Shown here piece after piece: positions 3,020-57,747 of a DNA stretch of 64,000 nucleotides. Within the stretch, counting starts at the first letter, position 1; the number at the start of each line of letters is the position of its first letter. This stretch comes from Lacipirellulaceae bacterium (GTDB lineage: Bacteria; Planctomycetota; Planctomycetia; Pirellulales; Lacipirellulaceae), in contig JBIOWO010000253.1 in NCBI GenBank assembly GCA_044868555.1, positions 2,009 through 66,008 on the forward strand. The letters are read 5' to 3'. Made by a program: the position numbers and the translations under genes. The notes beneath the pieces are model-generated. The model was given only the letters and a program-made list of their open reading frames with translations, did no database searches and was not told the DNA's origin.

Positions 3020-5386
3020 TTACTCCTGCGCCGCCGCCGCGGCCGCGCTGGCCGGCTCCGGCGTCGCCGGCCGGCCGTCGTCCTCGCGGGCCATCAGGTA
3101 CGACTTCAAGCTGCCCAGCAGCCGCCGCGCCTTTTCCACGGTGGCGTCGCGTCGCCGGTCGCGATCACGCCGCGGCCGAATCAACACTTCGATCCGCGTC
3201 TCAACGTACGAGCCCGCGGCGAAGCCCTGCGTGTTCGCACGGGCCTGATGACTCTGCGAGAGCTTCAAGTGGATCAGGAACGACATCGACCGATCGCCCG
3301 CCCGGCGATGCGTGGTCGAGTGGCTGTCGTTCACAACCATCTCCAGCTCGTTCTCGTTGGTTTTGAGGATCTTGGCCTCCTGATCGGCGATGAAGCCGCG
3401 TAGTTTCTGCACGGCCACCTCGATCGGAACCATCGTCACCAGGGTCGTCTCGACGAGGGCGCTGCCGCCCCAGCCTTGGAACGGCCACCATCCGCGCTTC
3501 ACTTTTTCTTCCATCATTCCGTCCCCCAATTGGACCACCTGGTTTCGGCCTTGGTCTTTCGCTTGCAAGAGGGCCCGATCCGCACGTCGCAACATGGTTT
3601 CCGGCGTGTCGCCGGCTTGCAGCTCCGTCACGCCGAAACTGGCCGTGATCGACTTGCCGTTCAGGCACGAATGTTTGACCTCGGACATCGCCTTGCGGAT
3701 GGCTTCCGCCTTGCGGGCCCCGGCGGCGTTCGTGCAATCGGCACACAACACCGCGAATTCCTCGCCGCCATAACGGGCCACCAGGTCGCCCGACCGGCAC
3801 ATCGACTTGAGGAGCGACGCAAACGTGATGATCGCCTCGTCGCCCGCCTGGTGCCCGAACGTGTCGTTGATCGCCTTGAAGTGATCGATATCGGACATGA
3901 TCAGGCTGCACGGCAGATTCGATTCCTGGTGGGCGGCGACGAAATTGTTCAGCATCCGATCGAATTCGGCCCGATTCGCCACCTGGGTCATCGGGTCCTT
4001 CGCTACCTGTGCGTGGAGCGCCTGGCATTTTTCCTCGAGCGACGTCTCCGACGACACGTCGTGCAGCAGCACGGTGGCGCCGTGGATCGCGCCGTCCTGG
4101 CCGCGGACAGGAATCGCGTGCAGGTCGACCGCCACGAACCGCCCCTGCCGCCCCATGATGCTCACTCGCCCGAGCCATTGCACGCCGCTGGTGATCGCGT
4201 GCGCCACGGGGCAGTCGTCGTTGGCGATCCGCTGCTCCTTCGCGTTGCACATATCCATCAGGCTGGGGATGAACGTCCGGCCGGTGGCGGCGCTGCCGCT
4301 GACGCCCGTGAGCCGCTCCATCCCCGTGTTCCACAGCACGATTGTCGCCTGGCTGTCGACGAACACCACGCCGTCGTGCATGTTGTCGATCAGCTTCTTC
4401 TCGAACAGAGCGACGGTCGATTCGCGGACGGGTTCCTCCCGCTCGTATTCGACGATCGCCGTCCACGGCAGTGGGCTGCCGGTCTTTGGCAGCCGGCGCA
4501 GCCAGCGATGGGCCAGCTTCTGCGTCAGCACGTTCTGGTCCTGCTCGAACAGGGCCTCGAACTGCCGCACCAACTCGGGGTCGAACTGGCTGCCGGCGAA
4601 TTCGTACAGCTCCGCCAGGGCTCGCTCGCGGGAACGGGCCGGCCGGTAAACGTGATCTGTCGTCATCGAATCGAACGCGTCGACGATCGCCAGCATCCGC
4701 GCCGCTAGCGGTATATCCTCGCCGGATCGCGCCTGCTTCTCGTCCCGGCAGGCGTACCACGACCGGCTGTGCTCGACGATCTCGAGCACCGTTGGCGGCA
4801 CGCCGCAGCTCCGCAGGATGTCGATCGTCAGTGTCGCGTGGCGCGACATGTGCGCGATTTCTTCCGGCAGAAGCCGGCCCGGCTTGAGCAGCACTTTGTC
4901 CGGCACGCCGATCTTGCCCACGTCGTGCAGCAGGGCTGCCACTTCGAGCGCGTCGCGCACGTCGTCGTCCAGGTCCATCGCCGTTGCCCACGAGCTGCAA
5001 CCGAGCGCCACGCGCAGGCAGTGCGATGCAGTGGGTGGATGTTTGGCCCGCAGGGCTGCGTGCAGGCCGCTGGCAATTCCCAGCCGGGCATGAACCAGCT
5101 TGCTTTCGTGGGCCACCGCCCGCGCCTGCGCGGCCGATTGCCCGCTCTCCACCGCCGCTTCATCCAAGGAATTGAGCAGCGAAGAGATCTCCGCCTGCGG
5201 GCGCGCGGTTTGGTTGGGGACCAGAACTGGCACCGGCGAATACCCGGCGTCCGGGATCGCAACGGCGAGCGTAGAATCAATGTGGGCCATGGCTGCTGCA
5301 GGGGAACGAGGTAGCGAATCATCCATGCGCGGCGTGAGTTCCTCGACCAACAGCCCGCTTGGATTGGCCGCAGAGTCGGCGCGCAA
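3020..5386 (-). CDS. multidomain c-di-GMP signalling protein: HD domain (degenerate GYP) + PAS + GGDEF + unknown C-terminal domain
   Basis: HD motif LLHDVGKIGVPD, but HSRSWYACRDEK stands where HHExxDGxGYP is expected. PAS segment: DGVVFVDSQATIVLWNTGMERLTG. GGDEF with an intact RYGGEEF and an RSGD I-site 5 residues upstream. The last approx 170 aa are unassigned. The true start may be internal. Confidence 0.9.
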   Translation of the reverse strand: MRADSAANPSGLLVEELTPRMDDSLPRSPAAAMAHIDSTLAVAIPDAGYSPVPVLVPNQTARPQAEISSLLNSLDEAAVESGQSAAQARAVAHESKLVHARLGIASGLHAALRAKHPPTASHCLRVALGCSSWATAMDLDDDVRDALEVAALLHDVGKIGVPDKVLLKPGRLLPEEIAHMSRHATLTIDILRSCGVPPTVLEIVEHSRSWYACRDEKQARSGEDIPLAARMLAIVDAFDSMTTDHVYRPARSRERALAELYEFAGSQFDPELVRQFEALFEQDQNVLTQKLAHRWLRRLPKTGSPLPWTAIVEYEREEPVRESTVALFEKKLIDNMHDGVVFVDSQATIVLWNTGMERLTGVSGSAATGRTFIPSLMDMCNAKEQRIANDDCPVAHAITSGVQWLGRVSIMGRQGRFVAVDLHAIPVRGQDGAIHGATVLLHDVSSETSLEEKCQALHAQVAKDPMTQVANRAEFDRMLNNFVAAHQESNLPCSLIMSDIDHFKAINDTFGHQAGDEAIITFASLLKSMCRSGDLVARYGGEEFAVLCADCTNAAGARKAEAIRKAMSEVKHSCLNGKSITASFGVTELQAGDTPETMLRRADRALLQAKDQGRNQVVQLGDGMMEEKVKRGWWPFQGWGGSALVETTLVTMVPIEVAVQKLRGFIADQEAKILKTNENELEMVVNDSHSTTHRRAGDRSMSFLIHLKLSQSHQARANTQGFAAGSYVETRIEVLIRPRRDRDRRRDATVEKARRLLGSLKSYLMAREDDGRPATPEPASAAAAAAQE

Positions 5387-16521: not shown

Positions 16522-16526
16522 AATAA

Positions 16527-16620
16527 GGTTGAGCGTTTGTGGATGAGGGTTGAGGGTCGAGCGTACTGAAGTGGTTTTCCTAACCCTAAACCCTCAACTC
16601 TGTACCCTCAACCCTCAACC
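16527..16620. repeat. inverted pair of gagggttgagggt / accctcaaccctc repeats
   Basis: 16545-16557 is the exact reverse complement of 16607-16619. The same motif family occurs inside CDS at 38467-38541 and 42233-42265. Confidence 0.8.
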
Positions 16621-16660
16621 AAAAAAGAAGCCCGGTCCCCGCCGTAACGGGAACCGGGCT
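16621..16660 (-). terminator. intrinsic terminator (minus strand)
   Basis: On the minus strand: agcccgguuccc-guuacggc-ggggaccgggcu, a 12-bp stem with one G-U pair, followed by ucuuuuuu. Confidence 0.75.
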
Positions 16661-16933
16661 CTGTTATTGCTTTGAGATCAAGAACCTAGCTGACCCAGCT
16701 GAAGTCAAGCACGGCGCTTACTCAGAAGCAGGTGGTGGTCGCCTGAGGCGACCCGCCGGCCAACTCAGGTTAAACCACCTCGCTGGCTGTTAGAACAACT
16801 GTCGTACAATGACCACCTCCTTCCTACTAAAGTTATGGCTCAGCCAGCCTAGAAAGCCAACTTTCAGACAGGCCAGCCTTGCCCTCTAGTAAAGTCGTGC
16901 TGCGTCAGCACGAACCCGTCGCCTTCATTATAA
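16661..16933 (-). ncRNA. candidate orphan structured RNA / small non-coding transcription unit
   Basis: A terminator-ended unit with no convincing ORF. Local hairpins at 16895-16913 and 16737-16753. An SD-like ggaaggagg is present. Two aggtggt copies could alternately pair with one gaccaccacct. The palindromic ATTATAAT box at 16927-16934 is a possible -10. Confidence 0.3.
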
Positions 16934-17095
16934 TCGGACAAACCCGGTAATCTACACAAGAATTGCCGCGATTTATCCAACATTTTTACGACGCAGCGGG
17001 ACCCCCTTTGGTTCGCGCCAGTAGGTGCCGCGAGCCGAGCGGCACTTGGCCTTGTCCCATTTGGCACAGTTCTCGACGCATAGTACTCCTAGCAT

Positions 17096-17111
17096 TGGCA
17101 CACCTGTAGCA
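17096..17111 (+). promoter_or_regulatory. sigma54-type -24/-12 motif (TGGCAC-N5-TAGCA)
   Basis: GG and GC are at the canonical 12-nt register. It is one of four TTGGCACA repeats upstream of rtcB. Confidence 0.4.
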
Positions 17112-17131
17112 TTGGCACAGTACCCAATTAT

Positions 17132-17147
17132 TGGCACAGTACTCGCA
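17132..17147 (+). promoter_or_regulatory. sigma54-type -24/-12 motif (TGGCAC-N5-TCGCA), proximal to rtcB
   Basis: One mismatch to TGGCAC-N5-TTGCA. It ends 47 nt upstream of the rtcB ATG. Confidence 0.5.
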
Positions 17148-17194
17148 GTATTCGAAAACCTAATGCCAAGCCTCGGCTCGCCCAAATTTGCTCC

Positions 17195-18592
17195 ATGAAC
17201 GCCCGCCAGCTCCAAAAACTCGGTGTCCCACCCGACTGCGTGAAAGCGGCCATGCACGCGCTCGGCCGCGCCGCCGACGCGGGCACCGGCCTCGGGCTCA
17301 AGGGCAAGCGGGCCCGCCAGCTCGTCGCCGCCGTGATCCAGAATCCGCCGGCCCACGTGACCGATCCCGTTTGGGGCGAGCTGGCCCGCGAGCTCCTGGC
17401 AGCCGACGCCCCGCTGGCCCACGAAGCCATTTCGTATCGCACCTGGGGCGACGACATCGACGTCGGCGCCCACGAGCAGATGCGAGCTGCCTGCCAGGTT
17501 CCCACCGCCGTTGCCGCCGCGCTGATGCCCGACGCCCACATCGGCTATGGCCTGCCCATCGGCGGTGTCCTGGCCTGCGACAATGCCGTGATTCCCTACG
17601 CGGTCGGCGTCGATATCGCGTGCCGCATGAAACTATCGGTGCTCGATCTGCCAACCGCCACGCTGGAGAGCGATTTCAACCGCTACAAGGAAGCTCTCAT
17701 GGGTGGCACCAAGTTCGGTGTCGGCGTCGAGCACCGCCCGGCCCAATCGCACGCCGTGATGGACCGCGACTGGAACGTCACCCGCATCACGCGCGAACGT
17801 AAGGACACCGCCTGGAAGCAACTCGGCACCAGCGGCTCGGGCAATCACTTCGTCGAATTCGGCGTGCTGTCGCTCGCGCAAAACGAGCCGCAACTGGGAC
17901 TCGAAGCCGGCGAATATGTCGCCCTCTTGAGTCACAGCGGCAGCCGTGGCGCCGGCGCCGCCGTTTGCAGCACGTACAGCCAAACCGCCCAGGCCCAACT
18001 GCCCAAGCGTTTCAAAGACCTCGGCCGGCTGGCTTGGCTCAGCCTCGATAGCGAGGCGGGGCAGGAATACTGGAATGCGATGAACCTGATGGGTGAGTAC
18101 GCATCGGCCAACCACGCCGTGATCCATCGCCTGGTGACGAAGCTGCTCGGGGCCCAGATCATCGCCGGCGTCGAGAACCACCATAACTTTGCGTGGAAGG
18201 AACGACACCAGGGCCGCGAGCTGATCGTCCACCGCAAAGGCGCTACGCCAGCCAGCGCCGGCGTTTTGGGCGTCATCCCCGGCACGATGGCCGACCCGGC
18301 CTTCGTCGTTCGCGGCCTCGGCAATCCGCACAGTCTCAACTCGGCCGCTCACGGCGCCGGCCGCCGCATGTCGCGCAAAAAGGCAAACGACACCTACCGC
18401 TTCCAAGCCGTCCGCAAAGACCTCGAACAGCGCGGCATCCACGTGCTGGCCGCCGGCTCCGACGAAGTGCCCGGCGTTTACAAGGACATCCGCCAGGTGA
18501 TGGCCGCCCAGCAGGACCTGGTCGAAACGGTCGCCCGCTTCGACCCCAAAATCGTCCGCATGTGCGGCGACGGCAGCCGAGCGGAGGACTAG
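17195..18592 (+). CDS. rtcB: RNA-splicing ligase RtcB
   Basis: MPDAHIGYGLPIGGV, GSGNHF, SHSGSRG and NHHNFAW..HRKGAT motifs. There is an approx 60-aa N-terminal extension relative to E. coli RtcB. Confidence 0.95.
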   Translation: MNARQLQKLGVPPDCVKAAMHALGRAADAGTGLGLKGKRARQLVAAVIQNPPAHVTDPVWGELARELLAADAPLAHEAISYRTWGDDIDVGAHEQMRAACQVPTAVAAALMPDAHIGYGLPIGGVLACDNAVIPYAVGVDIACRMKLSVLDLPTATLESDFNRYKEALMGGTKFGVGVEHRPAQSHAVMDRDWNVTRITRERKDTAWKQLGTSGSGNHFVEFGVLSLAQNEPQLGLEAGEYVALLSHSGSRGAGAAVCSTYSQTAQAQLPKRFKDLGRLAWLSLDSEAGQEYWNAMNLMGEYASANHAVIHRLVTKLLGAQIIAGVENHHNFAWKERHQGRELIVHRKGATPASAGVLGVIPGTMADPAFVVRGLGNPHSLNSAAHGAGRRMSRKKANDTYRFQAVRKDLEQRGIHVLAAGSDEVPGVYKDIRQVMAAQQDLVETVARFDPKIVRMCGDGSRAED

Positions 18593-18646
18593 GTCCGCAT
18601 GTCGGCGAAATTGCGATTCTGATAAAATGGAGTGGGAGGAATCGCA

Positions 18647-19300
18647 ATGGCCGCCCCGTTCGAACCCAATCTTTCTATTTTACCTGACGAGCAGCGCCGC
18701 TTGTGGCCGGAATTGCGGGATGTGCCGCAGACGTTCGTGCTGTGCGGTGGCACCGCGATCGCTTTGCAACTGGGCCACCGCACGTCGCGCGATTTCGACT
18801 TCGTTGCCTTTGGCACGTTTGATCCCGACGAGCTATTTTCCCGATTGCCACTACTCGCTGGCAGCGAAGCCATTCAGAAATCAGCCAACACTCTCTCGTG
18901 CATCGTGAAGCGCGACGCCCCGGTTCAGCTATCGTTCTTCGGCACTCCCGGCCTCCGATTGCTCAATCCCCCGCTGATCGCCTCCGACAATCATGTGCGG
19001 ATCGCGTCGCTGCTCGACCTTTCCGCCATGAAGGCTGCGGTCGTGCAGAAGCGCGCGGAAGCAAGAGACTATATCGATCTGGATGCAATCGTTCAGCAAG
19101 GGGGCGTGGATCTCCCAACCGCCTTGGCGGCAGCCCGCGCGCTTTACGGACCAGCGTACAATCCAGAGCTAACGCTGAAATCGTTAAGCTTTTTTGGGGA
19201 CGGTAATTTAGCTAATTTGCCTCCGAACGTTCAAAACCGGCTCGAACAAGCAGTGCGAAGTGTCAATCTCAATGAACTGCCAAAAATCAGGCGATCATGA
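18647..19300 (+). CDS. DUF1814 / AbiEii-family nucleotidyltransferase (type IV TA toxin-like)
   Basis: CGGTAIALQLGHRTSRDFDFV is the NTase G-x-D-x-D motif. KAAVVQKRAEARDYIDLD is the AbiEii motif III-like segment. The ATG at 18647 is preceded by GGGAGG. The ORF track starts at the GTG at 18632. Confidence 0.8.
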   Translation: MAAPFEPNLSILPDEQRRLWPELRDVPQTFVLCGGTAIALQLGHRTSRDFDFVAFGTFDPDELFSRLPLLAGSEAIQKSANTLSCIVKRDAPVQLSFFGTPGLRLLNPPLIASDNHVRIASLLDLSAMKAAVVQKRAEARDYIDLDAIVQQGGVDLPTALAAARALYGPAYNPELTLKSLSFFGDGNLANLPPNVQNRLEQAVRSVNLNELPKIRRS

Positions 19301-19617
19301 AGCAGCTTGTGTTAACTCCCGAACTTCAGCAAGTGGCTCGCCGGGTTATCTGGTTCGAGGAGCCGGAGCAGGCAATCGCCGATCCAGCACGATTCGTCGC
19401 CTATGCGATGACATACGGAACTCACACCGATGTCGCAGAAATCGAGCAGCAGCTGACCGAAGTCGGTCTATTGGAGGCCCTTGAAAACGCCCCGGCCGGC
19501 ATCTTCGACCCGCGCTCCTGGGCCTATTGGAACCTCAAATTGGGCCGCTATCCTACGCCTCCAATGCCGCAGAGGCCATTTGATAAAATGCCGTGGCCGC
19601 CTAAGTTTGACGCGTGA
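19297..19617 (+). CDS. hypothetical protein, translationally coupled to the NTase (possible cognate partner)
   Basis: ATGA start/stop overlap with the preceding gene. 106 aa with no recognisable motif. Confidence 0.6.
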   Translation: MKQLVLTPELQQVARRVIWFEEPEQAIADPARFVAYAMTYGTHTDVAEIEQQLTEVGLLEALENAPAGIFDPRSWAYWNLKLGRYPTPPMPQRPFDKMPWPPKFDA

Positions 19618-19722: not shown

Positions 19723-20544
19723 ATGACCAACCCAACGCTTCGATATTTGACCGTGATCTGGTTGACGCTTGTCGGCGTTATTCTGCAACAATTCACCGCG
19801 ATGGCTCAAGAGCGGCTGCGTGTCGAGCGAGACGGAGGATCGACTCTTGCGCTTCAATTTGGTGGTCGAGGGGAAACTTCCGACACTCCCGCGCCTTCCG
19901 CCGAACCCCGCGACCTGGTCGCGCTCACAGTCTGGGTGCTGACTGTCTCCGATTCAGCCACACCGGAAACGGACGAGCTTATCGGCCAATTGGTCGACAA
20001 GGCGAACAGCCTGCCGGTGGTTATCGGAAAATCGGACGACGTCCGCGATCTCGTCAAACGGCTCAAAGTCGCAGGGCTACTGAGCACGTCGCGCGAATAT
20101 CGTCTCCTCACGCTCGACGGCCAGCAAGTGACATCTCAGGCCGGCTCCAACCATCCTACCATCGTTGCCACCAACATCACCAACCGCGGCCGGACCAACT
20201 CCATTAACTTCCAACAAGTCGGGACGATGATCACGGCGACAGCACGCATCGACGCTGCTTCCGGAATTCTTGTGAGCCTCGACTATCAGGCCAGCGGCGT
20301 CGAGAAATCGAGGGACGTGGCGATCGATCAACCGGGTGAAGGCCAGCCGACATTCGCTGACATCATGGCAACCCAGCAGATCAACACGACAGTCCGCCTC
20401 AAGAGCGGCACCGCTTTACTGGTACGCAGTGACGCGACTCAAGACTTCGGCGAAAAATCCACCGGCGGACAGACGCGCCTGATAATCCTTTCTGCCACGG
20501 TGATACCCGCGCTCGAGGAACCGCGGAGCGCGGCCGCAGAGTAG
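19723..20544 (+). CDS. secreted hypothetical protein with secretin-like C-terminal segment
   Basis: Signal peptide present. The C-terminal QQINTTVRLKSGTALLV...RLIILSATVI resembles the end of secretin domains. It lies in AT-richer DNA. Confidence 0.5.
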   Translation: MTNPTLRYLTVIWLTLVGVILQQFTAMAQERLRVERDGGSTLALQFGGRGETSDTPAPSAEPRDLVALTVWVLTVSDSATPETDELIGQLVDKANSLPVVIGKSDDVRDLVKRLKVAGLLSTSREYRLLTLDGQQVTSQAGSNHPTIVATNITNRGRTNSINFQQVGTMITATARIDAASGILVSLDYQASGVEKSRDVAIDQPGEGQPTFADIMATQQINTTVRLKSGTALLVRSDATQDFGEKSTGGQTRLIILSATVIPALEEPRSAAAE

Positions 20545-20592: not shown

Positions 20593-21693
20593 CTAATTCT
20601 GCCCCGCCTTCGGCGTCTCACCGCTCAGGTGCCGCCGCAGGTACGTCGCCCGCTCGATATTGCGGTCCGACGAATCGAGCTCCATGCCGGTCAGCTTTTG
20701 CAGATGGGCCGGCTGCGTGTGCACGAATAGCTTGTTGACGGTCGGCATCGCCACGTCGCGAATCAGGCCCAGATTGACGCCCATCCGCAAGCTCGACAAG
20801 AGGTGCATCGTCTCTTCCGAGCTGATCGTTTGGGCCGTCCGCAGGATGCCGTATGCCCGGCTTACCCGGTCGTGCAGCGTCTCCTGGCTCTCGCGAATCA
20901 AGAACTCGCGGGCCTGTCGCTCGTAATCGATCATCACCGGCACCACGTCGGCCACCTTCTTTGTCAGCTCCTCTTCGCTCAGCCCGAGCGTGATCTGGTT
21001 GCTGACCTGGTAGAAATCGCCCTGGGCCTGCGAGCCCTCGCCATAGAGGCCGCGGACGGCCAGGTTGATCTTCTGCAGGCTGCGAAACACCTTGTCGATC
21101 TGCCGCGTGAGCACCAGTGCCGGCAGGTGCAGCATCACGCTCACCCGCAGGCCCGTCCCCACGTTGGTCGGGCAGGCCGTCAGGTAGCCGAACCGATCGT
21201 TGTACGCGTACGTCACCCGCGACTCGATGTGATCGTCCAGCTCGGTGATTTCCTCCCAGGCCGCGGTCAGGTCGAGCCCGCTCTTGATCACCTGGATCCG
21301 CAGGTGATCTTCTTCATTGATCATCACGCTCACCTGCTCGCGCTTATCGATGACCACCGCCCGCGCTCCCTCGGCTTCGGCGTGTTCGCGGCTGATAAGC
21401 TGCCGCTCCACCAGAAACTGCCGATCGACGGCCTCCAGCGCACTAACGTCGACGTAAATCAGTTGGCCGATGAATTTGCCGACCTCATGCAGCTTTTCGA
21501 TTCGCCCGCGCAGGATGCGGCCGATCTCCGCCCGGTCGGCGTCCGTCGCCCGCGCGATGAATGGAAAGTCGGCCAGGTTCCGCGCCAGCCGGATGCGGCT
21601 CGAAATGACGATGTCCGACTCTGGCCCCTCGCCCCGCAGCCATTCGCCGGAGGTCTGCGCCAGGTCGTGCAGATTGATGTTGGAGAAGTCCAT
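20593..21693 (-). CDS. mcsB: protein arginine kinase McsB
   Basis: Phosphagen-kinase-type motifs: RIRLARNLADFPF, NEEDHLRIQ, CPTNVGTGLRVSVMLHLPAL. Confidence 0.93.
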   Translation of the reverse strand: MDFSNINLHDLAQTSGEWLRGEGPESDIVISSRIRLARNLADFPFIARATDADRAEIGRILRGRIEKLHEVGKFIGQLIYVDVSALEAVDRQFLVERQLISREHAEAEGARAVVIDKREQVSVMINEEDHLRIQVIKSGLDLTAAWEEITELDDHIESRVTYAYNDRFGYLTACPTNVGTGLRVSVMLHLPALVLTRQIDKVFRSLQKINLAVRGLYGEGSQAQGDFYQVSNQITLGLSEEELTKKVADVVPVMIDYERQAREFLIRESQETLHDRVSRAYGILRTAQTISSEETMHLLSSLRMGVNLGLIRDVAMPTVNKLFVHTQPAHLQKLTGMELDSSDRNIERATYLRRHLSGETPKAGQN

Positions 21694-21705: not shown

Positions 21706-22227
21706 CTATTTCTGCGCTTCCTCGCGCGTCTGTTCGATCTTGCGAATCTCGTCGCGCAGTTTCGACGCCCGCTCGTACTCCTCCGACGTTACCGCCTCTT
21801 TCATCTCCCGCCGCAGCCGGATCAGCTGCGTCTGCTCTTCGGCGCCGCGGGCACAGAACTTCGGCACCTTGCCCATGTGCTTGGTCTCGCCGTGGATGTT
21901 GAGGAGCAAAGGCTCCAGCTCCTCGGCAAAGCACACGTAGTCGTGCGGGCAGCCCAGTCGGCCCTGCTTGCGGAACTCCAAAAACGTGATCCCGCACACC
22001 GGGCAAGTCCGCTGGTCGAGCCGCGCCAGCTCCTCGGCAGTTTCGCCCACCGCCAGATGTTGTGCCAAGAGCCCCGCCATCGCCGGCAGCACCTCGTTCG
22101 CCTCGTCCGAACTCGGCGCCAGGAACTTGTGCGCACATTCCTCGCACAGGTGCAGTTCGTTCGGCTTCCCGTCCACAAGGTCGGTAATGTGAAACGTAGC
22201 CGGCTTCTCACACTTCTGGCATTTCAT
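21706..22227 (-). CDS. mcsA: McsA-like activator (zinc fingers + UVR motif)
   Basis: CQKC...CEEC and CPVC Cys pairs. C-terminal UVR-like EEYERASKLRDEIRKIE. The start is taken at MKCQKC because the longer ORF runs into a repeat hairpin. Confidence 0.85.
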   Translation of the reverse strand: MKCQKCEKPATFHITDLVDGKPNELHLCEECAHKFLAPSSDEANEVLPAMAGLLAQHLAVGETAEELARLDQRTCPVCGITFLEFRKQGRLGCPHDYVCFAEELEPLLLNIHGETKHMGKVPKFCARGAEEQTQLIRLRREMKEAVTSEEYERASKLRDEIRKIEQTREEAQK

Positions 22228-22245
22228 GGCAAACTCACCAAATAG

Positions 22246-22334
22246 CCGACCCATCTTGGGTCGGATGACGCCGTAATCGCGGCACAGTGCTACTCGCCCC
22301 TCAATCCGGCCAGGATGGCCGGGCCATTTGCTGC
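22246..22334. repeat. composite repeat: ccgacccatcttgggtcgg hairpin plus ccggccaggatggccggg unit
   Basis: The hairpin is at 22246-22264 and the unit at 22306-22334. This is the third occurrence of the pairing. Confidence 0.85.
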
Positions 22335-56433: not shown

Positions 56434-56808
56434 ATGGTAGAATTGAGGAGGCCGCCGGCATGTTCGAATCAAAATGGCATGGTCCGAAAAATGGTTGCCT
56501 CACTTCGCTTACCGATTGACCGCGAGAAGCTCCGCGATTTCTGTCGCAGGTGGTCCATTTCCGAGCTTGCGGTCTTCGGGTCCGTCCTGCGCGATGACTT
56601 CCGTCCCGATAGTGACGTAGATTTTCTGGCAAGTTTTTCCGCCGATGCGCCATGGAACCTTCTTGATCAGGTGAAGATGCAGAACGAGCTGGCCGAGATC
56701 GTCGGGCGACGCGTCGATCTTCTCACGCGTGCGGCTGTGGAAAAGAGCAGGAATCCGATTCGGCGACGGGCTATCCTTGAATCAGCCGAGGTGCTTCATG
56801 TCGATTGA
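56434..56808 (+). CDS. mntA: MntA-type nucleotidyltransferase antitoxin (type VII TA)
   Basis: LAVFGSVLRDDFRPDSDVDFL is the GS-x10-D-x-D minimal NTase motif. It overlaps the downstream DUF86 gene. The start is uncertain (56434, 56479 or 56491). Confidence 0.85.
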   Translation: MVELRRPPACSNQNGMVRKMVASLRLPIDREKLRDFCRRWSISELAVFGSVLRDDFRPDSDVDFLASFSADAPWNLLDQVKMQNELAEIVGRRVDLLTRAAVEKSRNPIRRRAILESAEVLHVD

Positions 56809-57160
56809 TCGCGACCCTGCGCTTCTCATCGACATCGCGAATGCATGTGATCTGATCGGCAAATTCATCCGCGGCACTAGCAAACCCGAATTCGATGCCG
56901 ATCAAAAGTTGCAGTCTGCCCTACTTCATCAGTTGCTCATCCTTGGTGAAGCCGCTCGTCAATTATCCACCGGTTTCCGCGCTGCTCATCCAGAAGTCGA
57001 TTGGTCCGGCTACATCGGACAACGCAACGTGTTGATTCACCGCTATCTTGAAGTGGATCTGGATAAGGTCTGGCGAGTCGTCGAGGACGAAATTCCTGAG
57101 CTCCGACGATGGATCCAACCCTGGTTGCCTGACGAGTTCTTCGAAAATTCACCGCGGTAA
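56798..57160 (+). CDS. hepT: HepT (DUF86, HEPN) ribonuclease toxin
   Basis: The HEPN R-x4-H motif is in GQRNVLIHRY. It overlaps mntA by 11 nt. Confidence 0.85.
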   Translation: MSIDRDPALLIDIANACDLIGKFIRGTSKPEFDADQKLQSALLHQLLILGEAARQLSTGFRAAHPEVDWSGYIGQRNVLIHRYLEVDLDKVWRVVEDEIPELRRWIQPWLPDEFFENSPR

Positions 57161-57180: not shown

Positions 57181-57747
57181 ATGCCCATTCGCACTTTCAT
57201 CGCCGTAGCCGTCTCATCCGAAATCCGCCACGGCGCCACGCGCCTCATCAGCCGCTTGCGGCCTAGCGCCGGCGACGTCAAGTGGACCGCGCCCGACAAT
57301 CTCCACTGGACGCTCCAGTTCCTGGGCGACGTCGACGATTTGGAAATCCCTGCGCTGTGCGATGCCGTCGCCACCGCCGTGAACGATATCGAGTTGTTCG
57401 ACTTGCAAGCCTGCGGCGCCGGCGCATTCCCGACCGCCGATCGCCCGCGCACACTCTGGCTCGGAGCAGGGCAGGGCGCGGATGCAATGATCGCCCTGCA
57501 GCGGGCGATTGAGCGACCGCTCAAAAAGCTCGGCTACCGCGGCGAGGACCGCCGCTTCGTGCCCCACCTCACGCTCGGCCGCGCCGGCCGGCGTGGCCAA
57601 CCGCAATCCCTGGCCGCCGAGCTCGCCGCCCTGGCCGACTTCGACGCCGGCTCCATGCTCGTCGACGAAGTCACCGTCTTCGCCAGCACGCTCACCCGCG
57701 AAGGCTCCGAGTACCGCGTCCTGGCCCATGCCCCGCTGGCTCAGTGA
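57181..57747 (+). CDS. thpR: RNA 2',3'-cyclic phosphodiesterase (2H phosphoesterase, LigT/ThpR)
   Basis: Two H-x-T-x motifs (HWTLQFLG; PHLTLGR) at the correct spacing. Confidence 0.9.
   Translation: MPIRTFIAVAVSSEIRHGATRLISRLRPSAGDVKWTAPDNLHWTLQFLGDVDDLEIPALCDAVATAVNDIELFDLQACGAGAFPTADRPRTLWLGAGQGADAMIALQRAIERPLKKLGYRGEDRRFVPHLTLGRAGRRGQPQSLAAELAALADFDAGSMLVDEVTVFASTLTREGSEYRVLAHAPLAQ

Follow-up and report, generated by a model that had tools for sequence, protein, structure and literature searches.

The gene pair beside rtcB

A 64,000-nucleotide stretch of contig JBIOWO010000253.1 from a Lacipirellulaceae bacterium (positions 2,009 to 66,008 of the forward strand), referred to here as the window, contains rtcB, the gene for an RNA 3'-phosphate ligase, followed on the same strand by genes for a short nucleotidyltransferase (NTase) and a 106-aa protein. 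An earlier note on this DNA, made from the sequence alone, had read these three genes as one RNA damage-repair module in which an RNA-modifying NTase is wired to a repair ligase. The comparative analysis described below points to another arrangement: the region from 18593 to 19617, comprising the NTase gene, the small gene and the spacer before them, is probably an autonomous, horizontally mobile cassette of the toxin-antitoxin type that lies beside rtcB, with RtcB as a bystander.

The rtcB gene (17195-18592, plus strand, 465 aa; PF01139, E 1.3e-86) is separated by a 54-nt spacer with a promoter-like region (18593-18646, plus strand) from the gene for the NTase (18647-19300, plus strand, 217 aa), a short member of the DUF1814 (AbiEii/MenT-type) family PF08843 and the predicted toxin. 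The ATG at 18647 is favored by homologue alignments over an alternative in-frame GTG at 18632. The NTase stop codon overlaps the start of the small gene in an ATGA (19297-19300), and the small gene (19297-19617, plus strand, 106 aa) encodes a predicted antitoxin, an all-alpha partner without a Pfam family. The open reading frame (ORF) map agrees with the earlier note on the common direction of the three genes, the 54-nt gap and the ATGA overlap, and also on the lack of an AbiEi-type gene before the NTase, the gene directly upstream being rtcB.

Composition sets the pair apart from its surroundings. The GC content is 0.57 for the NTase and small genes and 0.59 for the secretin-domain gene that follows them, compared with 0.67 for rtcB and 0.63 for mcsB. 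At third codon positions (GC3) the NTase gene has a value of 0.63, the small gene 0.65 and the secretin-domain gene 0.68, compared with 0.83-0.86 for icd, rtcB and mcsB (0.83 for rtcB itself). The AT-richer stretch that had been noticed downstream of rtcB is therefore recovered, and the contrast is sharper at GC3. The cassette is compositionally foreign in the window and rtcB is native.

The NTase matches PF08843 (AbiEii) with 57.3 bits (cut-off 22.5, E 2.8e-15). A sequence search of the Protein Data Bank (PDB) with the single protein gave no match and a profile search gave a weak match to MenT1 (E 0.55), so the protein was placed by fold search. Using the AlphaFold2 (AF2) model, which has a predicted local distance difference test score (pLDDT) of 93, Foldseek returned JHP933 as the top match (4ok0, E 4e-6, 218 aligned columns), with MenT1 (8an4/8an5, E ~1e-5) and MenT4 (6y56, E 6e-5) also found; the Foldseek probability was 1.00 for 4ok0, 8an4/8an5, 6y56 and 5uvd (E 4e-6 to 6e-4). 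In an alignment of 28 NTase homologues, G34, G35 and T36 and the residues of H44 R45 x S47 x D49 x D51 are invariant, as are Q134, R136, D141, Y142 and D144, while K129 is nearly so. The GG and DxD motifs align to those of MenT1. The DUF1814/AbiEii signatures reported earlier are thus invariant family-wide, and the catalytic residues, whose possible degeneracy had been raised as a concern, are intact on alignment.

The phosphoacceptor positions of type VII toxins are T39 in MenT1, S78 in MenT3, and T65 in AbiEii. Ser47 of the NTase aligns with the Thr of the MenT1 sequence RFTRDVD, which is residue 38 of the PDB chain by count and is consistent with native T39, the MenT1 phosphoacceptor (bioRxiv 10.64898/2026.01.19.700257). 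Judged from the alignment, the invariant Ser47 would supply the Ser/Thr expected at the type VII phosphoacceptor position. By sequence and fold the NTase is an intact DUF1814/MenT-like enzyme; by analogy, it may act on tRNA 3' ends and inhibit growth.

The 106-aa protein was described earlier as having no recognizable motif, and it indeed has no match in Pfam, NCBIfam, or PADLOC. Its AF2 model (pLDDT 92) has six helices and no fold match in the PDB (best E 3.5), and a family profile searched against PDB chains found nothing, including no MenA1, at E <= 10. The family is large: there are at least 718 close homologues (63-76% identity among the matches listed), and a profile search of 1.84 billion representatives gave 1262 clusters at 50% identity with E <= 1e-3. 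The best 150 of these clusters are all short stand-alone proteins with no informative domain fusion, and none of ten clusters checked has a name given by its source. Two distant family members reach DUF6922 below threshold (21.6 and 16.9 bits, cut-off 27), the window protein does not match DUF6922, and no paper on DUF6922 was found in the literature searched, coverage of which is incomplete. Assignment of a function by homology was tried and abandoned, the results being null in Pfam, NCBIfam, PADLOC, PDB sequences and PDB folds. The small protein is a member of a new family that lacks both a Pfam model and a solved fold match. Two relatives have unusual architectures. P0342 (184 aa) joins the small-protein domain to an N-terminal segment resembling a helix-turn-helix by eye, without Pfam support; P0242 consists of the first ~45-57 residues of an NTase followed, in the same reading frame, by a complete small protein, and is an instance of NTase decay by internal deletion.

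Pairing of the NTase and its partner across genomes

Relatives of the small protein were collected as 399 stretches in a scan of one genome per species, and the locus counts given here are from the best 80 of these, 79 of which have enough upstream sequence; all were collected through the small protein. Planctomycetota, Nitrospinota, Nitrospirota, Alpha-, Gamma-, and Deltaproteobacteria, and Acidobacteriota are represented among the best 80 loci, and overall the pair extends over at least six phyla and includes plasmid-borne copies. At 58 of the 79 loci the small gene is immediately preceded by an intact NTase gene, and in 48 of these 58 pairs the two genes overlap by 4 nt. The remaining 21 have an intact small gene without an intact NTase, nine with NTase fragments and twelve with none. 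Pairwise identities of the NTase and the small protein are correlated (r = 0.78, Mantel p <= 0.001, 62 pairs). When loci were looked up through the NTase instead, the small gene was downstream in five of five and no orphan NTase was seen.

Gene order is not fixed over the whole family. Plasmid p16192 of Campylobacter sp. RM16192 has homologues of both proteins in the opposite order, with the small gene first and a 4-nt overlap; NTase identity there is 34% (E 2e-27), and hhalign matches the small protein with a probability of 98.5%. These genes lie in a compact toxin island (L184, 2465-4650) in which the small-protein homologue, the AbiEii NTase, a zeta toxin, MNT and HepT are co-directional and mostly overlapping. 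The conjugative Acidiphilium multivorum plasmid pACMV1 carries the pair amid other toxin-antitoxin genes. There, the small ORF 3' of the annotated AbiEii gene (L183, 3001-3303) is not listed in the PLSDB gene table, which is incomplete, and an annotated IS1595 transposase runs over its 3' end. Some annotations may under-call the small family. Phage carriage was not indicated, as there was no match in 50,697 phage records; in IMG/VR the pair occurs only on two near-identical contigs (L164 and L165), with an NTase identity of 44%.

The pair has the general features of a toxin-antitoxin system, being tightly bicistronic and moving as a unit, with asymmetric decay in which the NTase is lost and the small gene is kept. 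Because intact small genes adjoin dead NTases, the NTase would be the damaging component and the small protein the one that protects. The small protein is probably the cognate partner of the NTase and its neutralizer, as the sequences suggest. The earlier note had proposed it as a neutralizer or adaptor within an RtcB unit; the pairing, overlap, co-divergence, orphan small genes and p16192 are in keeping with the neutralizer role, and the wiring to RtcB is the part that did not hold.

Linkage to rtcB and the rtcB-mcsB interval

Linkage of the cassette to rtcB is confined to one clade. Where RtcB is at least 76% identical to that of the window, the small gene is downstream of rtcB in all ten distinct loci and the NTase is kept in seven; the clade includes members added through NTase look-ups (L170, L175-179 and L182). 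The rtcB gene adjoins the cassette only where RtcB is 76-85% identical, in records that, where named, are Pirellulales or Planctomycetota. No window-type rtcB was found near the cassette in ~70 loci outside the clade, which belong to Nitrospirota, Nitrospinota, Proteobacteria, Acidobacteriota and other Planctomycetota, and the sole other RtcB near a cassette is only 26% identical and lies on the opposite strand ~4 kb away (L041, Hyphomicrobiales), a proximity taken as chance. The survey from the RtcB side agrees: among 80 metagenomic orthologues of the 465-aa type (52-85% identity), the cassette or small gene is beside only the two closest (85% and 81%), with neither found within 5 kb of the other 78 (52-74%). 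Adjacency to rtcB is thus conserved in close relatives, as the reading in the earlier note requires, but not in independent lineages. The note knew of no described RtcB-AbiEii pairing, and no paper names both in the literature searched, coverage of which is incomplete. The cassette has low GC3 relative to its neighbors in every rtcB-linked locus of the clade.

In the window, the small gene is followed by a gene for a secretin-domain protein (19723-20544, plus strand, 273 aa; PF00263, E 5e-9), which is outside the cassette, and then by mcsB (20593-21693, minus strand; PF00217, E 3.8e-69) and mcsA (21706-22254, minus strand, with a UVR motif), both convergent with rtcB. The cassette lies between convergent rtcB and mcsB-mcsA in seven loci. 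The mcsB-mcsA genes keep their synteny, with 84-89% identity, in L004, L013, L019, L020, L085, and L170, and are the conserved right boundary of a variable region; two clade loci are instead flanked by a gene for an extracytoplasmic function (ECF) sigma factor and a protein kinase gene. The contents of the rtcB-mcsB gap vary and include the NTase and small genes, the small gene alone, an IS630-type transposase, and a 241-aa gene. The secretin-like gene is absent from L004, L019, L020, L175 and L182, and precedes the small gene in L013 and L085. The window secretin-domain protein combines an N-terminus resembling a signal sequence with a partial Secretin domain, and is only 33-35% identical to its counterparts in L013 and L085.

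Three loci have a relic of rtcB, consisting of its last 60-130 nt with the stop codon included (75-87% identical), 3' of the inserted DNA. In L170 (5019-5087) and L182 (3469-3528) the relic comes directly after the small gene, and in L013 (5011-5139) it comes after 260 nt of unassigned sequence. The relics are read as scars left where DNA was inserted or recombined at the 3' end of rtcB, which looks like a recurrent point for such events. A neighbor-joining tree of the NTase and small protein groups the rtcB-linked loci with the unlinked Pirellulales locus L007 at a bootstrap of 57%; with support of 57% and below, the tree was set aside as a means of distinguishing one insertion from several.

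The 54-nt spacer contains an extended -10 element, TGATAAAAT (18620-18628), 21 nt before the NTase ATG, and a ribosome binding site region of GGAG/GGGAGG (18629-18639). An TAAAATGG element is at the equivalent position in clade loci L020, L084 and L170. Among the 58 loci with an intact NTase, a -10-like hexamer is present within the 46 nt before the NTase in 21, compared with ~10% expected from shuffled sequences, and a TGn-extended -10 is present in seven, compared with 0.7% expected; coding controls have none of the hexamers. It seems that the cassette is served by an extended -10 promoter of its own. The -10 element is flanked by the arms of a perfect 10-bp inverted repeat, ATTGCGATTC (18610-18619) and GAATCGCAAT (18639-18648), which also covers the ATG; our guess is that this repeat is a candidate autoregulatory DNA operator. 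Analogous palindromes of 8-10 bp in L170 (3959-4003) and L016 (~4195-4232) have a right arm that abuts or covers the NTase start, and their arm sequences differ. The palindrome was also considered as an RNA hairpin insulating the NTase from rtcB read-through, and this was rejected (z -1.2 to +0.2, and about -1 for the window palindrome, insignificant). No terminator-like site was found in the 54-nt spacer. The signs of co-transcription are mixed: rtcB and the NTase gene are on the same strand, 54 nt apart and with no terminator between them, yet a -10-like element lies within the gap.

The claim that RtcB has all its motifs is supported by the PF01139 match and by alignment of the metal-binding and guanylyl-His motifs with the solved structures TTHA1785 and PH1602. 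Orthologue alignments span residues 1-465. They include an N-terminal extension of ~90 aa (residues 1-90, 17195-17460; MNARQLQKLGVPPDC...) that is common to all 80 orthologues sampled (52-85% identity) and is outside the Pfam RtcB model and the solved RtcB structures. In two clade long-read metagenome-assembled genomes, rtcB reads as frameshifted (L013, 3278-4752, and L170, 2460-3942), possibly through assembly error.

Upstream of rtcB is a 673-nt intergenic region of low GC (16522-17194, 0.53) between divergent icd and rtcB, with an imperfect inverted repeat of CCCTCAA-type heptamers (16527-16625) and a strong 15-bp hairpin as the icd terminator (16628-16661). This region has no Rfam match and no convincing ORF, and a search of the entire window by Rfam and tRNA scanning for Y-RNA, tmRNA or other rtcB-linked RNA found nothing. 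Four TTGGCAC(A/C) repeats (TTGGCACAG), including TGGCAC-N5-TCGCA, lie 60-135 nt 5' of rtcB (17061-17148), a cluster that accounts for the enrichment of the repeat 9-mer in the window. Two of the four, TGGCACacctgTAGCA and TGGCACagtacTCGCA, have sigma-54-like -24/-12 spacing. Control of rtcB by sigma-54 and an RtcR-type activator was considered and rejected, since the motif is absent upstream of 69 other RtcB orthologues and the window has no ORF for a GAFTGA activator.

A second RNA-end repair gene, thpR (57181-57747), encodes a LigT-type 2H phosphoesterase and starts 21 nt after a HepT gene (56729-57160) that overlaps an MNT gene (56434-56808), all on the same strand. The earlier observation that thpR adjoins a toxin module is therefore correct, the MNT/HepT pair at 56434-57160 being directly upstream. 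HepT-type cleavage is expected to leave cyclic-phosphate ends, which are substrates for ThpR-type enzymes. Since ThpR can act on such ends, thpR with MNT-HepT is a biochemically likelier pairing than rtcB with the NTase. The adjacency cannot yet be counted as independent support for a repair theme.

Origin, function and relation to known systems

If the cassette works as its relatives suggest, an NTase of the MenT1/JHP933 kind would add nucleotides to tRNA 3' ends, block aminoacylation and so arrest translation. The small alpha-helical partner, translationally coupled to the NTase, would hold it harmless by direct binding, possibly through autophosphorylation of Ser47 triggered as in the type VII systems MenAT and AbiE. 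The module would then be an addiction or abortive-infection element. It was probably placed in the variable foreign stretch between rtcB and mcsB in one Pirellulales-type lineage and then inherited, with its position possibly re-seeded by recombination anchored on the conserved 3' end of rtcB. RtcB would be the product of a native RNA ligase gene beside the insertion site and not a partner by design.

Several points weigh against this account. The toxin and antitoxin roles are drawn from comparative genomics and analogy, and both the promoter and the operator were called solely from matches to consensus sequences. As the spacer is short and has no terminator, transcription of rtcB is likely to read through into the cassette. 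The linkage in ten of ten clade loci, across two flanking contexts, outlasts what a random neighbor relation would give, and could reflect selection. With tree support of 57%, a single ancestral insertion and repeated rtcB-anchored exchange are inseparable. In addition, orphan NTases would have been missed because the loci were collected via the small protein.

The same linkage is the main argument for the reading closest to the earlier note, in which rtcB, the NTase and a small regulator or adaptor are co-transcribed as a lineage-restricted RNA damage-and-repair unit, with RtcB mending or making use of RNA ends on which the NTase acts. In all ten clade loci the small gene follows rtcB in the same orientation, in seven of them with the NTase, and the trio persists between different neighbors, with icd, GGDEF or ECF sigma genes on the upstream side and mcsB or ECF sigma and kinase genes on the downstream side. 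Spacers are mostly short, ~50-105 nt in six loci (~300 nt in L019), that of the window has no terminator, and thpR is a second RNA-end repair gene that adjoins a toxin module. However, the ~70 outside loci have no window-type rtcB, the 78 more distant RtcB orthologues have no cassette, and a pattern shared by the whole clade counts as a single evolutionary event or a few. Three of the ten clade loci have lost the NTase while keeping rtcB (frameshifted in L013, possibly an assembly error), secretin-like and IS630 genes come and go in the same gap, and the cassette has foreign GC3 and its own -10 element. RtcB joins 3'-phosphate or 2',3'-cyclic-phosphate ends to 5'-OH ends. MenT-type addition makes neither these ends nor their 5'-OH counterparts, and the suppressor in the Mycobacterium tuberculosis MenT work was RNase PH (PMC7450476). 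As the ends joined by RtcB differ from a MenT-type lesion, there is no obvious biochemical reason for pairing rtcB with the NTase, and the three-gene unit as first proposed, undercut by its restriction to one clade, the foreign cassette with its own -10, and the loss of the NTase in three of ten loci, is unlikely. In a related reading the cassette is more than a passive neighbor in this lineage: either it homes to the 3' end of rtcB, or it has been co-opted so that read-through ties the NTase and its neutralizer to the RNA-repair response. Given the relics that flank the inserts in three loci, rtcB may be a specific landing site or recombination anchor for a cassette without a recombinase, and in either version a tRNA-modifying toxin of the DUF1814 kind would for the first time be connected with the RtcB pathway; taken together, the two are given little weight here, a small residual chance left by the relics and by the invariant linkage within the clade.

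Two other readings concern the pair itself. The order NTase then small overlapping gene is that of MNT and HepT, a pair of which is present in the window (56434-57160), and a small protein without a known fold could be toxic as far as the homology results go; the NTase would then be an antitoxin that silences a toxic small protein by covalent modification. Such reversed polarity is very improbable, since intact small genes stand alone or by broken NTases at 21 of 79 loci, where an unguarded toxin should not persist. Moreover, the NTase has the fold of DUF1814 toxins (MenT1, MenT4, JHP933) and not of a minimal MNT, the small-protein alignment has no HEPN R-x4-6-H motif, and on the Campylobacter plasmid the order is reversed, with the small gene ahead of the NTase. 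The pair could also be a two-component enzyme, such as an NTase with a subunit for specificity or regulation, that modifies a small molecule or nucleic acid in a benign role, such as resistance or RNA maturation, and causes no growth arrest. The antibiotic nucleotidyltransferases ANT(2'')-Ia and LnuA share the DUF1814-like fold, lower in the Foldseek list, both proteins are 55-73% identical across phyla, which is unusually conserved for a toxin-antitoxin pair, and MenT2 was non-toxic in tests (PMC7450476). Despite this, the pair is found in toxin-antitoxin-rich islands and on plasmids, is patchy across phyla and foreign in composition in the window, frequently decays in the NTase only, and has toxin members as its best structural matches, so a benign role is judged improbable. 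The autonomous toxin-antitoxin-type cassette remains the preferred explanation.

Among the closest known systems is MenA1-MenT1 (Rv0078B-Rv0078A) of M. tuberculosis. MenA1 is a 68-aa, MazE-related and largely disordered protein. Both systems have a short DUF1814 NTase of ~200 aa with a GG...(S/T)xDxD core and later K/D residues, and a small partner without a recognizable DNA-binding domain. They differ in that the antitoxin is upstream there (PMC7450476) and the partner downstream here, where it is a folded six-helix protein of 96-106 aa with no sequence or fold match to MenA1, and the NTase is only ~20% identical to MenT1. JHP933 from Helicobacter pylori is the top Foldseek match and has a small overlapping gene partner upstream, jhp0932, with which it makes a putative toxin-antitoxin pair (PMC7450476); the Campylobacter plasmid, from the same class, holds homologues of both window proteins in the order small gene then NTase. 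The gene order of JHP933/jhp0932 is opposite to that of the window, and JHP933 has no demonstrated toxin activity. A search for a link between the small family and JHP0932, seeded with the Campylobacter homologue, gave only five unnamed proteins.

AbiEi-AbiEii (Streptococcus agalactiae, Lactococcus), MenA3-MenT3 and MenA4-MenT4 share PF08843, the predicted chemistry and an overlapping bicistron with the window pair, and in current models the antitoxin induces autophosphorylation of the toxin (bioRxiv 10.64898/2026.01.19.700257). The NTase is ~70-80 aa shorter than those of AbiE, MenT3 and MenT4. There is no COG5340/AbiEi winged-helix antitoxin, rtcB being directly upstream of the NTase, and the PADLOC models of AbiEii are weakly matched (best E 1e-6) and those of AbiEi not at all. 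As no AbiEi is present, the cassette is not an AbiE system. Known contexts of rtcB include rtcBA with RtcR and sigma-54 in Escherichia coli, rsr-yrlBA-rtcBA in Salmonella, RtcB-PrfH, and RtcB-archease. RtcB is intact here as it is there, and in those contexts it mends RNA cut by ribonuclease toxins, so a theme of toxins with RtcB does exist. Nevertheless, none of those partners flank rtcB in the window, where the direct neighbors are icd and the NTase, and the toxins linked to RtcB there are endoribonucleases, not nucleotidyltransferases. The reading of rtcB and its neighbor as a repair module is explained by lineage history and insertion-site effects and should therefore not be propagated as a functional pairing.

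DUF1814 NTase toxins such as AbiEii and MenT are among the most abundant defense and toxin-antitoxin enzymes. To our knowledge, in all those characterized the antitoxin is encoded upstream and is of the AbiEi, COG4861 or MazE-like kind. The kind of system found here is itself known; what is new is a partner family without a Pfam model or solved fold, and a usual order with the toxin gene first. There is thus a large family of short DUF1814 NTases with a distinct and highly conserved partner that is usually encoded downstream. If the partner neutralizes the NTase, it would represent a new antitoxin class and gene order for the DUF1814 superfamily, and the pair would offer a compact model in which to examine the silencing of MenT-type enzymes.

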